In this document: positions 32-7,860 of the stretch, one piece after another
Numbering within the stretch: the stretch's first letter is position 1
How the letters are laid out: every line of letters begins with the position of its first letter
Source of the DNA: an uncultured delta proteobacterium
GTDB taxonomy: Bacteria; Myxococcota_A; Polyangia; Polyangiales; Polyangiaceae
Direction of reading: 5' to 3'
DNA length: 64,000 nt
NCBI GenBank assembly: GCA_963782055.1
Contig: CAWAIF010000003.1
Location: forward strand, 448,001 to 512,000
The notes under the pieces: generated by a model
What the model saw: the letters and a program-made list of their open reading frames with translations, nothing else
Databases searched by the model: none
Told to the model about the DNA's origin: nothing
Made by a program: the position numbers and the translations under genes

Positions 32-715
32 TCACGCCGCGCGGAGCACGGCCCCGAAGAGGCGTCGCCCGTCGTCGCCGCCGAGGATCGCCTCGCTCAT
101 GCGCTCGGGGTGGGGCATCAGCCCGAGCACGTTCTTCCTGGGCCCGCCGTAGACGCCGGCGATGTGGGCGACCGACCCGTTCGGGTTGGCCCGCACGTCC
201 AGGTGGCCGTCGCGGGTGCAGTAGCGCAGGGCGACGCGCCCCTCCGTCTCCAGCTTCGCCAGCAGCTCCGGTGACGCCTGGTAGCGCCCCTCCGCGTGGG
301 CGATGGGCAGGCGCCACACCTCGTCCAGCTTGGGCGTGAACGGCCCCTTCGCCGCGACCTTCACGTACCAGTCCCCGCACTCGAAGCGCAGGTGGGCGTT
401 CTGCGTGAGGGCGCCCGGCAGCAGCCCTACCTCGGTGAGGATCTGGAAGCCGTTGCAGACGCCCAGCACCCAGCCGCCGCGCTCGGCGTGGGCGCGGATG
501 GCGCCGACGATGGGGCTCGCCTTCGCCAGGGCGCCGCAGCGCAGGTAGTCGCCGTAGCTGAACCCGCCGGGGATGGCGACGAAGTCGGTCCCCGCGGGAA
601 GGGCGGTATCCGTGTACCATGCAACCTTCGTCGGCACCCCGCACACGTCGCGGATCGTGCGGATCATCTCCGCGTCGGCGTTGAGGCCCGGGAACAGCAC
701 GACGGTCGCCAGCAT
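32..715 (-). CDS. purQ: Phosphoribosylformylglycinamidine synthase glutaminase subunit
   Basis: [28 protein letters not shown] (catalytic Cys), PIAHAEG, NPNGS and GLMPHPER motifs. Start trimmed to [10 protein letters not shown] (ATG at 715). Confidence 0.96.
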
Positions 716-815: not shown

Positions 816-3188
<2,373 letters not shown>

Positions 3189-3338: not shown

Positions 3339-4325
3339 ATGTCCAAGGCCCCCTCGCCCCTCCTGGGCTACAACAACAACGTCCGGCACAAGAACCGGGT
3401 GTTTCACATCCAGACGGAGGACTCGGGGATCAAGCACCCGCACGTCATCACGCACCTCTTCATGGATGGCGGGCGGATCCTCAAGTCGATCAAGACGAGC
3501 TACGCCGAGCACGTCAAAAACGAGAAGCTGGGCGACGTCGTCCGCCAGATGATGAAGGAGCAGCACAAGGCCATGTTCAAGGCCTTGCGCGATGGCTCGC
3601 TGGACCCGGTGATCGAGGACGCGCTCGTGGGGAGGGTGAGCCGCACCAGCCTGCCGCCGATGCGCCCGCCCGCCGCGACCATCCCGGACGAGGCGCCGCC
3701 CGCCACCACCCGCGAGCCCCCGCTGAACGAACGCACCGACCCGAGCTCCGCGCCGGTCATGCCCATCCCGCCGGCGCAGGACCTGACGCTGGACCTGGAG
3801 GCGCTGGAGCGCGCATCGGAGGAGCCGGTGCCCTCCTTCCGCCCTGCCAACGACCTCCCGCCGCCGCCGGCCAACCTCTTCCGGAGCGCGCAGGGCTCGG
3901 AGCCCGGCACCGGCCGTTACCGCAACCTGCGGGAGGACGCGCCTGCGCCGGAGGAGCACGTCAAGTCGTCGCGCGCGCCGCGCTCTCGCAGCGACCGCCC
4001 CAAGCCCCGGAGCGAGCGCCCGCGTCGGGAGTCAGCGCCCTCGCGGCCCGACCCGCGCGCGGAGCCGCCTTCGGAGCCGCGCCAGCCGGTCGCCGAGCCG
4101 GCCAGCGCGCGGGGACGCAAGGCACCCTCCCGGCCGCCGGCGCGCGCGCCCTCGCGGCCGCCGCCCGCCACCGAGCGCCATGCCCCCGCGCGGCCCGCCG
4201 CCATCTTCGGGCAGGCGCGCCCACAGCAGGCCTCCATCTTTGGAGAGGACATCATCAGCGACAAGTCGCTGGACGAAGTGATCCTCAGCTACCTCGCGGA
4301 GGATCTGGAGGACGGTTCGAAGTAG
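3339..4325 (+). CDS. Hypothetical protein: ordered N-terminal domain, Pro/Arg-rich linker, short acidic C-terminal motif
   Basis: Typical codon bias. N-terminus LGYNNNVRHKNRVFHIQTEDSG and C-terminus FGEDIISDKSLDEVILSYL resemble myxobacterial hypothetical proteins as I recall them. Confidence 0.75.
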   Translation: MSKAPSPLLGYNNNVRHKNRVFHIQTEDSGIKHPHVITHLFMDGGRILKSIKTSYAEHVKNEKLGDVVRQMMKEQHKAMFKALRDGSLDPVIEDALVGRVSRTSLPPMRPPAATIPDEAPPATTREPPLNERTDPSSAPVMPIPPAQDLTLDLEALERASEEPVPSFRPANDLPPPPANLFRSAQGSEPGTGRYRNLREDAPAPEEHVKSSRAPRSRSDRPKPRSERPRRESAPSRPDPRAEPPSEPRQPVAEPASARGRKAPSRPPARAPSRPPPATERHAPARPAAIFGQARPQQASIFGEDIISDKSLDEVILSYLAEDLEDGSK

Positions 4326-4564
4326 CCGCTGCGAGGTGGGACGGGGAGCCTCCCCGGCGCTGTCGTCACGCGACGGAGCGCTAGCACGCTGACAATCCGA
4401 CAGGCTTCGCGCCGCCCCACCGCCTGCCTGTCGAATTGGGGGCTTCAGCCCCCGAAATTGGCCGCTTCCAGAGGGCTGCCTTCCGGATTCCGCGCACTTC
4501 CGGCCTGTCGGGAAGTAGACACCGGATGGCTCTGATTCCTCAAAGATTTTCGTGCGTTCACCCC

Positions 4565-4593
4565 TTGCATCCGCCGCCGGTTGGCCCCATTCT
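4565..4593 (+). promoter_or_regulatory. sigma70-type promoter for the candidate sRNA
   Basis: TTGCAT (4565-4570), 17-nt spacer, CATTCT (4588-4593); predicted +1 at about 4600. Confidence 0.6.
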
Positions 4594-4599
4594 TTTTCT

Positions 4600-4740
4600 C
4601 GTACGCAGACACGCAGCTGTAGGGACGAGCCCCCTCCTCCGTTCTTGCAGTGCGACTCGTGGGCTTGCGCGAGCCCCCTCCCCCACCGCGTGAGCCCCCG
4701 CGCCCGGAGTAGCCAAGCTGCTTCGGGCGCGTTTTTTTTG
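4600..4740 (+). ncRNA. Candidate small RNA with two C-rich-loop hairpins plus a terminator
   Basis: Hairpin 4612-4654 (loop AGCCCCCTCCTC), hairpin 4661-4697 (loop AGCCCCCTCCCCCAC), terminator 4699-4739. G-U wobbles work only on the + strand. Confidence 0.72.
4699..4739 (+). terminator. Rho-independent terminator
   Basis: CGCGCCCGGAGTAGC-CAA-GCTGCTTCGGGCGCG stem followed by T8. Confidence 0.88.
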
Positions 4741-4770
4741 TCCGCCGTCCACCGGCGCGCCGGGAGCCTC

Positions 4771-6585
4771 TCAGGGCGTGAAGGTGACGTCCATGTCGGC
4801 GGAGCCGCCGCCCGCAGGGACCCCCTGCACCACCGTGCCCGGCACGCTGTTGATGATGCAGTTGCCGGCCCCCTGCAGGAAGTCCGGCACGCCCATCGCC
4901 ACCTTGGTGATGTGGCCGTCACCGCCGATGTCCACGTGAAGCTTGCCCGTATACGCGTCCGCCTTCGCGCCCGAGCGCAGGGCATCGCGGTAGCACCGCG
5001 TGAAGGAGGCGTTCAGTGACATGAGCGCGCCGCGCACGGCGTGGTTGTCGATACCGCCCGTCGTCTGCACGTTGCCGAGCCGGACGCTGCCCGGCCCCGA
5101 CGGGGGCGGAGCTCCCGCCTCGACCGCGGGCGCGGGAGGCGCGACGCTGGCGGGCGGCGCGGCGCTCGCGACCGTGGTGGCGGTCGACGCCGACGCGGCG
5201 GGCGTGCCCGACGCGCGGGCCTTCGCCGACACGACGGCGAGCGGTGTCGCCGAGCCGTGCGGCGCCGCCGACGCGGAGGGGGACGCGATGGCGGCGGAGT
5301 CCACCGGCGTCACGTCGTCGCTGGCCACCGCCACGGGGGAGGTCGCGTGCTCGGCGCTCGCCGACGCGATCGCCGAAGGTGCCGTCCCCGCCTGCGCGCT
5401 GCTCTGGAGCTTCTGGTAGACGAAGTAGCCGCCTGCGCCCACCACGCTGAAGAGGCTCATGGCGAGCAGGTAGCCCGTCCACCGGCGTGGCACCCCCGCG
5501 GGCCGCTCCAGCGCCTCGGTGCCGATGGGCGTGACCTTGCTGGCGGAGGGCTGCATCTGCGCGGCGGCCGCCCTGAGCTGGGCGGCGTCCAGCGGCACCG
5601 TCGCCGCGCTGGCGAGGCTCGCGCGCGCCCCCGCGAGCGCCGGGTTGCTGTCGGTCGCCGTCGGCAGGCTGCGCGGGAGGATGCCGCCCTCGATCGCCGT
5701 CTTGAGGTCGGCGCGCATCTCGCGGGCGCTCTGGTAGCGATCCTCCCGCTTCTTCTGCATCGCCTTGAGGCACACCGCCTCCAGGTTGGCGTTCACGCCC
5801 GGGTAGATCTCCGAGGGCCGCGGCGGCTCCTCGGTCACGTGCTTGAGCACGATGCCGATGGCGTTCTCCGCGTCGAAGGGCACGCGGCGCGTGAGGAGCT
5901 GGAAGAGGATGACGCCCATCGAGTAGAGGTCGCTGCGCGCGTCCAGCTTCTCGCCGCGTCCCTGCTCCGGAGACATGTACTCCGGCGTGCCGACGACGAG
6001 CCCCTTGGTGGAGAGGCGGCCGGCGGTGTCCTTGCCGTCGACGTCGCGCGACTCGCTGATCTTGGCGATGCCGAAGTCGCACACCTTGACGATGTCGCGC
6101 TCGCGCCCCTCGTCGTCCTTGCCCGCGAGGATCATGATGTTCTCGGGCTTGAGGTCGCGGTGCACCACGCCCTGGTCGTGCGCGACGGCGAGCGCGGCGA
6201 GCCCCTGGATCAGGATGTCGACCACCCGCTCGTCCTGCAGGGGCCACGAGGACTTGAGCACCGCGAACAGGTCGGTGCCGTCCAGGTACTCCATCGCGAT
6301 GTAGAGCAGACCATCGGGCTCCTCGCCGAAGTCGATGACGCGCAGGGAGTTGGGGTGGTCCAGCTTGGAGGCGGCCCGGGCCTCCCGCTTGAAGCGCGCG
6401 ACGAACTTCTCGTCCTTGGCGATGTCCCGGTGCATCACCTTGATGGCGACGACCTTGTCGAGCACCACCTGCCGCGCCTTGTACACCGCGCCCATCGCGC
6501 CGGCCCCGACGAAGGACTCGATCGCGTACTTGCCCGCGACCTTGCGTCCGAGGAGCGACTCGTCAGGCCCTTCGCGCGTGGACAT
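4771..6585 (-). CDS. Membrane-anchored Hanks-type Ser/Thr protein kinase with a C-terminal extracytoplasmic (AgmX/PglI/TonB-C-like) domain
   Basis: GAGAMGAVY, VAIKVM, HRDLKPEN, DFGIAK and GTPEYMSPEQ motifs; TM segment YLLAMSLFSVVGAGGYFVY; C-terminal FTRCYRDAL...CIINSV. Confidence 0.93.
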   Translation of the reverse strand: MSTREGPDESLLGRKVAGKYAIESFVGAGAMGAVYKARQVVLDKVVAIKVMHRDIAKDEKFVARFKREARAASKLDHPNSLRVIDFGEEPDGLLYIAMEYLDGTDLFAVLKSSWPLQDERVVDILIQGLAALAVAHDQGVVHRDLKPENIMILAGKDDEGRERDIVKVCDFGIAKISESRDVDGKDTAGRLSTKGLVVGTPEYMSPEQGRGEKLDARSDLYSMGVILFQLLTRRVPFDAENAIGIVLKHVTEEPPRPSEIYPGVNANLEAVCLKAMQKKREDRYQSAREMRADLKTAIEGGILPRSLPTATDSNPALAGARASLASAATVPLDAAQLRAAAAQMQPSASKVTPIGTEALERPAGVPRRWTGYLLAMSLFSVVGAGGYFVYQKLQSSAQAGTAPSAIASASAEHATSPVAVASDDVTPVDSAAIASPSASAAPHGSATPLAVVSAKARASGTPAASASTATTVASAAPPASVAPPAPAVEAGAPPPSGPGSVRLGNVQTTGGIDNHAVRGALMSLNASFTRCYRDALRSGAKADAYTGKLHVDIGGDGHITKVAMGVPDFLQGAGNCIINSVPGTVVQGVPAGGGSADMDVTFTP

Positions 6586-6665: not shown

Positions 6666-7860
6666 TCAGCTCTGCCGGCGCAACGAAGCGTTCGTCGCGG
6701 CGTCCCAGAGCTCCGCGTCGCCGGGGCGCAGCGCCGACACCATCTCCGCCACGTCGCGCGCGGCGTCGCCTCGAACGATGCGCTCGCGCGCCTCGCCGTC
6801 GCCGGTGAGCAGATCGAACGCGGGCACGTCGTCGCGGAACTCGTAGCGCTCGGTGCGGAAGACGAAGCGCTCCGGCGCGTGATGATGCGTGAGCGCCACC
6901 AGCGCGACGTACGTCGCCACGGGCCGGAACGAGCGCGCGTCGGTGACGTGGATCTGGACGCCGCCGCACACCTCGCCCGCGTGCTTGTGGAACGTCGGAC
7001 GGAAGGTGATCGGTCGCGCGACGAAGCCGGGCAGGCCGAGCGCCCCGAGCTCGCGGGCGAGGCGCTCGCCGTCCACGAAGGGGGCGCCGGTGATCTCGAA
7101 GGGGCGGGTGGTGCCCCGCCCGTCCGAGAGGTTCGTCCCCTCGAGGAGGCACCCACCGGGGTAGACCAGCGCGGTGGCCGGTGTAGGCATGTTCGGCGAA
7201 GGTAAGATGAAGTCACGGTCCCACCCGGTCGCAAGCAAGCTCCGGTCCCAGTCCGCGCGGACCACCGTGAGCGTCTCCGGCGGCCACCCTTCCACCTCGG
7301 CCCGCCAGGCCGCGATCTCGCCCGGCGTCAGCCCGTGACGCACCGCGATCGGCTCCAGGCCAACGAAGGAGCGGTAGCGCGCTGACTGCGAGCGGCCCTC
7401 GAGCGTCAGTTTGTTGCCGCCCGTGGGGTTGGGCCGGTCGAGCAGGACGCCGCGCACACCCGCCTTCGCGCACGCCCGCAGGGCGAGAACCGCGGTCCAC
7501 ACGAAGGTGTAGTAGCGGGCGCCCACGTCCTGCAGGTCGATGACCAGCGTGTCGATCTGCGCCGAGATCCTCCGGCCGAGGTGACAGGTCGTCGAACCGC
7601 TCACCGTAGAGGCTCCGCACGGGTGTGCCGCTGGTGTCCCGGGCGTCGGTGACGCCGATCATGTCCTGCGCCTCGCCCCCGTAACCATGCTCCGGGCCGA
7701 AGATCATCGCGGGGTGGTGGCCGTACGCGCGCAGCGCCGCCGCGATGTGGACCAGCTCGCGGGTGACCGCGGCAGGGTGGGCGAGCAGGCCGAGGCGTCC
7801 GGCGAGGAGTTTGTTTTGGAGGTCGGCCGAGGCGAGGAGGCGATCCAGGCCGGTGTGCAT
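6666..7860 (-). pseudogene. DUF1343/NamZ-like exo-beta-N-acetylmuramidase split by a +1 frameshift near 7562 (real or assembly error)
   Basis: The N-part (TGLD, FGPEHGY.G, SLYG) is in ORF 7213-7860. The C-part (DLQDVGARYYTF, LDRPNP, RHGLT.GE, PSPNMPT, EGTNLSDGRGTTRPFE) is in ORF 6666-7604. Removing one C at 7562-7563 joins them. Confidence 0.85.

Follow-up and report, generated by a model that had tools for sequence, protein, structure and literature searches.

Does the gap between romY and the protein kinase gene that converges on it, in an uncultured delta proteobacterium of the Polyangiaceae, encode a regulatory RNA of its own, and if so, what could such an RNA act upon? We analysed the locus within a stretch of 64,000 nucleotides (the window) from a genome with a GC content of 71.6%. 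A sequence-only reading had proposed a promoter, two hairpins with C-rich loops and a terminator at this site, and all of these elements were found. The features of the locus, in window coordinates, are as follows.

3339-4325, plus strand: romY, encoding a RomY N-terminal domain protein (NF053858, E 1.1e-34); conserved neighbour, outside the RNA gene
4371-4401, unstranded: 31-nt piece like the inverted repeat of MarR elements (blastn 90% over 31 nt, E 2e-4)
4506-4521, unstranded: candidate operator TGTCG-N6-(C/A)GACA, a CRP/MrpC-like palindrome 59 nt 5' of the -35 box
4565-4593, plus strand: sigma-70-type housekeeping promoter (TTGCAT at 4565-4570, 17 nt, CATTCT at 4588-4593)
4600-4739, plus strand: predicted sRNA of ~140 nt, its start inferred from the -10 spacing
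4612-4654, plus strand: SL1, optional hairpin, loop AGCCCCCTCCTC at 4628-4639 (also written AGCCCCCUCCUC)
4661-4697, plus strand: SL2, core hairpin, loop AGCCCCCTCCCCCAC at 4672-4686 (also written AGCCCCCUCCCCCAC)
4699-4739, plus strand: intrinsic terminator of 15 pairs (4699-4731) and T8/U8 (4732-4739), between the convergent romY and kinase genes
4771-6585, minus strand: Ser/Thr protein kinase gene, convergent neighbour (PF00069, E 5e-46)

Anatomy and folding of the locus

The region 4600-4745 folds with a minimum free energy of -74.3 kcal/mol (z = -6.15), and none of 200 shuffled sequences was equally stable; the three consecutive stems described earlier were found, and the 15-bp terminator with its T8 tract was confirmed as well. 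The sense strand reaches -72.1 kcal/mol, compared with -63.4 kcal/mol for the antisense strand, and contains seven G-U pairs. Since the promoter and the U-tract agree with this, the earlier assignment to the plus strand holds; the sense strand was also the more stable one in 36 of 43 family members. According to the computed unpaired probabilities, the SL2 loop is exposed (0.71-1.0). Positions 4630-4636 of the SL1 loop (CCCCCUC) are open (0.97-1.0), and the loop flanks at 4628-4629 and 4637-4638 are mostly paired (0.16-0.23). The SL1 loop is therefore present and C-rich, as had been claimed, but two extra pairs close part of it. Similarly, both loops in the window do begin identically, with AGCCCCCUCC, but this identity is special to the window's genome. 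There are 21 copies of the 10-mer AGCCCCCTCC in the 7.58 Mb searched, and the sRNA locus holds the sole pair of copies spaced 25-80 nt apart.

Among the open reading frames that start in or cross 4565-4740, none combines a Shine-Dalgarno motif with gene-like GC at third positions (0.56-0.82, versus 0.96 in the kinase frame), in agreement with the view that no credible ORF is present there. A type I antitoxin was also considered and rejected, as neither strand of 4400-4800 holds a Shine-Dalgarno-led, gene-like ORF. The same applies to an antisense CsrA sponge with GGA loops on the minus strand: the plus strand follows from the G-U pairs, the promoter and the U-tract, and the search for CsrA gave no match. 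The promoter at 4565-4593 was missed by a generic sigma-70 scan and is backed by comparative evidence instead.

The kinase gene is syntenic in six same-genus relatives, and the distance from romY to the promoter of the sRNA is greater in the window's genome than in these. Blastn matches of the 31-nt piece at 4371-4401 are two MarR-element leaders and other sites of the genome. RomY of Myxococcus xanthus is described as a co-GAP of MglB that stimulates MglB GAP activity (PMC9481161). Farther out, purQ (32-715, minus strand) and purL (816-3188, plus strand) are divergent and share no common operon, and a gene for NamZ, an exo-beta-N-acetylmuramidase (6666-7860, minus strand), appears to be split across two frames, 7213-7860 and 6666-7604, by a frameshift or a sequencing error.

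The element is found only in part of the Polyangiaceae

After one contig-end copy and duplicates were dropped, the family comprises 91 distinct members; they come from Polyangiaceae-type genomes and metagenomes, and 83 of them have romY within 1.5 kb. Both blastn and the covariance model find a single copy in the window's genome, which disposes of the objection that it might be a dispersed repeat. BLAST over 61 genomes gave a match in 16, and the real homologues were those in the six same-genus genomes and in G027, the others being chance matches.

In order to sample loci independently of the loop, we searched with the RomY C-terminus, which has a match in 232 of 301 family genomes. The best 29 relative romY loci, chosen by protein and biased to close kin, yielded 19 full elements (18 within 520 nt, the one in G019 slightly farther), one element cut after the promoter, one terminator alone (G184) and eight loci without the element. 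All 19 full elements carry CCUCC in at least one loop, so the loop is conserved in relatives; this tally includes G279, a genome flagged as unpublished which no other result uses. An unfiltered scan of 51 further romY regions found the element in three.

A covariance model of SL2 and the terminator, built from 17 sequences and scoring 30 candidates per genome, had matches at E<=0.01 in 27 of the 150 family genomes searched, and in 17 of these the score was no less than 50 bits. A pattern scan of GTDB genomes returned 87 stretches, of which 80 were retrieved and 37 were strong (53-95 bits, the next score being 35). These 37 loci all come from metagenome-assembled genomes titled Polyangiaceae, Polyangiales, Myxococcales or delta proteobacterium. 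The corresponding scan of metagenomes gave 118 stretches, 80 retrieved and 59 strong. Since the search pattern demanded CCCTCCC for most members, the loop count of 90/91 is biased.

Ten genomes searched deeper held nothing above 22-26 bits, and viral contigs gave no match. Samples of the order and of the phylum (150 genomes each) contained, outside the family, weak matches only (26-36 bits); as distant homologues these were rejected, being generic terminators without romY among the 30 candidates scored per genome. The element is found only in part of the Polyangiaceae; the earlier reading had suggested a family possibly undescribed in Polyangia.

The stems covary while the CCUCC loop is kept

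In the 17-sequence alignment, both sides changed in 13 of 24 pairs, and in 52 distinct further metagenome sequences in 15 of 24. None of 500 shuffles scored as high, and slid alignments gave 2-6 pairs; the 52-sequence alignment (A7) was made by fitting sequences to the model, and double-change counts of this sort are inflated by relatedness. By element, double changes affect 6 of 11 SL2 pairs in the 17 sequences and 8 of 11 in the 52, and 7 of 13 terminator pairs in both alignments. In 20 inverted two-hairpin members, RNAalifold recovers all three stems, with 14 of 32 pairs double-changed. We conclude that the hairpin stems are under selection, covarying while the CCUCC loop is kept.

SL2 and the terminator form the constant core of the family, and SL1 is optional. 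In the six same-genus relatives the same promoter is followed directly by SL2, without a C-rich SL1, and two-hairpin forms are present in several other genera. An unpaired CCUCC upstream of SL2 was seen in 44 of 88 members, against 13 shuffles with any CCTCC; SL1 was part of no search pattern. In the inverted clade described below, the SL1 loop is the exact anti-Shine-Dalgarno sequence CCUCCU. Some members carry AACCCA, CUGUUU or AUGGCA in the SL1 loop, which counts against an anti-Shine-Dalgarno function; others have no SL1. In one member (L067) SL2 has lost the U and SL1 retains the motif, which suggests that the two hairpins may be redundant.

In G184 (locus L036), the promoter and both hairpins are gone and the terminator alone follows romY, and its sister genome has the full two-hairpin gene. 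This state is a clean loss, and it too counts against the anti-Shine-Dalgarno reading.

The promoter accompanies the RNA in both orientations

The RNA faces romY in 59 members and follows it in 24. A promoter is present in 51 of 55 inverted and 23 of 24 same-orientation members. The motif TTG[ACT]nn-17-[CT]A was found in 37/43 and 28/43 of those members whose upstream sequence is complete (shuffles 3.2 and 2.8), and, divided by orientation, in 23/24 same-orientation and 43/55 inverted members. Promoter, hairpins and terminator evidently move as one unit, and the presence of an own promoter in both orientations speaks against a romY 3'UTR. What counts against independence is L301, a two-hairpin member in the same orientation as romY, which begins ~25 nt past the romY stop codon without a promoter match. 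The romY tree, which has 44 rows, groups 21 inverted members in a single clade with support of 98/96. Several independent inversions were considered, but a tree holding all 24 inverted rows together is not rejected (p-AU 0.21), so the claim is limited to at least one inversion.

In the window's genome, TTGC-17-CAnnnT occurs 61 times, versus 13-25 times at other spacers. It is thus a common class, and the reading of the window's promoter as one for the housekeeping sigma factor, of sigma-70 type as first proposed, stands. A sigma-32 promoter was also considered, since the window's CCCTTGCA-N15-CCCCAT resembled one and the genome has a sigma-32-like gene. It was dropped, as CCCCA is unenriched at spacer 17 (3 versus 0-4) and heat-shock genes use other promoters. 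Both groES genes (G000:C3:6536883 and 3549553) have TTGACG-17-TA promoters followed by an inverted repeat, which we take to be CIRCE-like.

A further motif, G[AT]AAC-N16/17-CGTA, overlaps the TTGC promoter in 32 of 55 inverted members (shuffles 0.26, maximum 2) and persists in inverted members with a decayed TTGC box. It fits the consensus given for sigma-W-type ECF promoters (PMC5758882). The window's own copy is without it. Across the window's genome it occurs 11 times at spacers 16-17, versus 0-3 times at other spacers; a looser form of the motif listed 17 genes, 10 of them annotated, picked by eye. There appears to be a small ECF-type regulon (GAAAC-N16/17-CGTA) on contig C3 of G000, at 1684680, 2968093, 4157762, 4697403 and 5284300, and the genes after this motif are doxX, an ECF sigma gene (2968093-2968701), DUF1223, yceI and msrA.

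Among the 24 same-orientation members, 6 have the palindrome TGTCG-N6-CGACA, with one mismatch allowed; every one of these is a two-hairpin form, and the window's copy is among them. The palindrome is present in 0/55 inverted and 0/7 other members. It was defined post hoc on five members and then seen in a new one (L368) at the same -59 offset. The motif fits the MrpC/CRP consensus TGTY-N8-RAC (PMC4320627), and the window's genome has three high-scoring genes of CRP-type HTH proteins. A regulon for this palindrome was rejected, as its 44 intergenic sites at spacer 6 are unenriched compared with 21-59 at other spacers.

Host translation and target searches

The 16S rRNA of the host terminates in GAUCACCUCCUUUCU, and upstream of the start codons of 6,194 called genes GGAGG has its peak at 10-20 nt; taken together, these findings indicate that the sRNA loops mimic the anti-Shine-Dalgarno sequence. 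Hfq, ProQ and CsrA were not found in the 97%-complete genome, in which positive controls were detected.

The earlier proposal of a regulator of GGAGG-type mRNAs stood with regard to the loops, but the seed and duplex searches gave no shared target. In each of six relatives the perfect seed GGGGAGGGG-N4-10-ATG occurs 0-4 times, compared with 0-6 for controls, and its 14 sites in these relatives include none that two genomes have in common. No conserved mRNA target was shared in the perfect-seed search over seven genomes, a test which would miss pairing by the short GGAGG core; seeds as short as GGAGG occur too often for a ranking. The start regions of romY and the kinase gene gave no G-rich match to the loops. 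RNase J was rejected as a target, because the matched stretch is coding sequence, the start codon having been miscalled, as judged by the N-terminal motif of RNase J.

The duplex ranking in the window's genome is led by a dispersed MarR family, which was not supported as a conserved target, as its G-run is not kept in the relatives' loci listed and the seed sites are unshared. This MarR-type HTH gene (165-210 aa) is present in ~58 dispersed copies genome-wide (e.g. G000:C3:2649765-2650361, minus strand; L236-L238) and in 37 of 301 family genomes, often as multiple copies. Upstream, the copies have a block of ~150 nt in common, in which C-rich repeats and a G-rich run are found together with an inverted repeat (ACGTCG-N22-CGACGT) and a sigma-54-like motif (GGCAY-N5-GTGC). 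The inverted repeat also occurs solo and in tandem (e.g. C3:4235005-4235296), and the family looks like a spreading element.

Comparison with known RNAs

In the window, no Rfam model matched at gathering level. The best match of the sRNA locus was ar14 (RF02344), the model of the cuckoo RNAs CcsR/RSs0680, with 20.7 bits versus a cut-off of 58.8 (E 0.15, spanning 4611-4735), and in eight further member loci ar14 had no match at E<=1. The likeness to cuckoo lies in adjacent hairpins with variable stems, a repeated anti-Shine-Dalgarno loop and a variable number of modules. However, cuckoo has CCUCCUCCC in every loop, whereas the window's loops hold CCUCCUCC and CCCCUCCCC, and those of the family CCCCUCCCC or CCCUCCU. 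Cuckoo consists of 2-4 adjacent modules, which the two-hairpin members resemble and the one-hairpin members do not; the new family has one or two plus a built-in terminator, and is single-copy and beside romY, unlike cuckoo. In the survey of PMC4615179, cuckoo is assigned to 78 alphaproteobacteria alone among 2,689 genomes, and that of Rhodobacter sphaeroides is described with an RpoH promoter and Hfq binding. In contrast, the 37 strong GTDB loci carry the myxobacterial or delta proteobacterial titles given above, and the new RNA has, instead of the RpoH-type promoter of CcsR, the general TTGC-17-CAnnnT class.

AbcR1/2 (ar15, Rhizobiales) repress ribosome-binding sites through anti-Shine-Dalgarno loop motifs in an Hfq-dependent manner, and ar15 has no Rfam match at the locus. 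RepG of Helicobacter pylori acts, free of Hfq, through a C/U-rich terminator loop, whereas the new RNA carries its C-rich loops on separate hairpins ahead of the terminator. The RepG target is a variable G-repeat in an mRNA leader (PMC8295292).

The 6C RNA of Actinobacteria shares with the new RNA a high-GC host, a length of about 90 nt plus poly-U, and C-rich loops, which in 6C are described to bind and repress G-rich ribosome-binding sites without chaperones (PMC6486639). By analogy, 6C is the closest mechanistic model. Its Rfam model had no match at E<=10 at the locus, and the new RNA differs in the central U of its loops (CCUCC), its Myxococcota host and its gene context.

Pxr (RF01812) is a myxobacterial sRNA with three stem-loops, the third being required for accumulation (PMC5684412), and is described as having a predicted sigma-54 promoter, following pxrK/pxrR and having arisen in Cystobacterineae (PMC5684412, PMC11928866, PMC8538405). 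The three-hairpin resemblance to Pxr that had been pointed out is real, but nothing goes beyond it. Pxr belongs to the Myxococcaceae and relatives, and the new RNA has sigma-70- and ECF-type promoters and a romY context; RF01812 had no match at the locus and none in 61 family genomes, a search run without a positive control. The best reading is that the new RNA resembles 6C and cuckoo most and is a member of neither, nor of Pxr.

Proposed function and alternatives

Of the features of trans-acting sRNAs, an own promoter, a terminator, the lack of an ORF and a conserved structure are found here. We favour, with a probability of roughly 60%, a chaperone-independent anti-Shine-Dalgarno sRNA that would be convergent with cuckoo and 6C. 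The housekeeping sigma factor would transcribe ~140 nt from near 4600 to the U-tract, and the RNA would fold, as covariation shows, into one or two hairpins with CCUCC loops, single-stranded by computation, and the terminator. The loops, complementary to GGAGG-type ribosome-binding sites, may pair in trans with G-rich initiation regions and block the 30S subunit, by which, on the analogy of 6C and cuckoo, translation or stability of several mRNAs would be lowered. Strong G-C pairing would permit this without Hfq or ProQ. SL2 would be the fixed recognition module and SL1 an optional second one, and motif conservation suggests that output may be tuned by lineage promoters, with a CRP/MrpC-like operator in the window's subgroup and an ECF-type promoter in the inverted clade.

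Among the alternatives, we consider it unlikely that the discrete RNA instead binds a protein (a C-rich-binding KH-type protein, a ribosomal protein or Rho) or sponges a G-rich sRNA. The loops are kept, yet a conserved mRNA target was not found, and repeated loops on variable stems suit protein-binding RNAs; against this, the SL1 loop of the inverted clade is exactly anti-Shine-Dalgarno, and the classic partner of sponge RNAs, CsrA, has GGA as its binding motif and was not detected. Slightly less probable still is a cis-acting 3' end of the romY or kinase mRNA, in which a shared terminator would be joined to protective hairpins or C-rich, Rho-loading loops and the promoter would be incidental. 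The terminator does lie where two convergent genes meet in both orientations, L301 resembles a romY 3'UTR form, and in the unrelated loci L097 and L302 a C-loop hairpin with a terminator comes right after a gene. However, the promoter is kept just upstream in both orientations, the unit was inverted whole, and romY is missing from the flank of 5 of 43 members, one of which (L059) lies ~4.5 kb from it. In L097 (1498-1577, minus strand) and L302 (1150-1228, plus strand), the hairpin has a CCCCCUCCCC loop and stands directly 3' of a gene, with no romY; the L097 record is titled Gammaproteobacteria, L302 is a related metagenome contig, and the element may be a convergent one of 3'UTR type.

A silencer of the dispersed MarR elements, whose leaders are G-rich and loop-complementary, appears improbable. 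MarR copies dominate the best-scoring targets in the window's genome, GGGGAGGG or GGGAGGGG lies within 70 nt of the start in 35 of 58 copies, and 19 of the 37 genomes with MarR elements are among the 27 examined RNA carriers, a co-occurrence confounded by kinship. Yet the sigma-54-like motif precedes the start by 12-26 nt in all 58 copies, and the G-rich core of 30 copies is upstream of this motif and so probably outside the mRNA; nor is the G-run kept among the 29 relatives' loci listed. A functionless structure due to chance or repeats deserves hardly any weight: genomes of such GC content fold readily, but a single copy, 91 homologues, covariation and conserved promoters refute it.

Implications for Polyangiaceae

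The modular unit proposed by the sequence-only reading is discrete, conserved and non-coding, with anti-Shine-Dalgarno-like loops, and is absent from Rfam. It is a real and apparently undescribed sRNA family of the established C-rich-loop class, unusually flexible in its evolution: no earlier description was found in mainly open-access main texts, and motif collections beyond Rfam could hold one. In the same, mainly open-access literature, functional work on myxobacterial sRNAs concerns Pxr alone, and no Polyangiaceae sRNA family was found. With 91 sequences, covarying stems and defined promoter classes, the family is well delimited and ready for an Rfam model. All named strong matches are metagenome-assembled genomes, thus studies of function need a surrogate host.

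The anti-Shine-Dalgarno sRNA would represent a third independent origin of C-rich-loop RNAs of this kind, beside cuckoo and 6C, in a host without detected Hfq, ProQ or CsrA. More tentatively, and with considerable doubt, the family may be viewed as an independently evolved anti-Shine-Dalgarno cassette that was flipped in place next to romY, a polarity gene, and that acquired or lost its first loop and switched regulator. In the inverted clade it would be the non-coding arm of an ECF regulon for oxidative or envelope stress, a suggestion based on the same GAAAC-N16/17-CGTA motif before msrA, doxX, yceI, DUF1223 and the ECF sigma gene, and in the window's subgroup it would be wired to a CRP/MrpC-like regulator. 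If this is true, myxobacteria without Hfq and ProQ would possess a general translation brake, and the RNA family, in which a module was gained or lost, the unit inverted and the promoter changed, all inside a single bacterial family, would offer a natural series of one seed rewired to new regulators.
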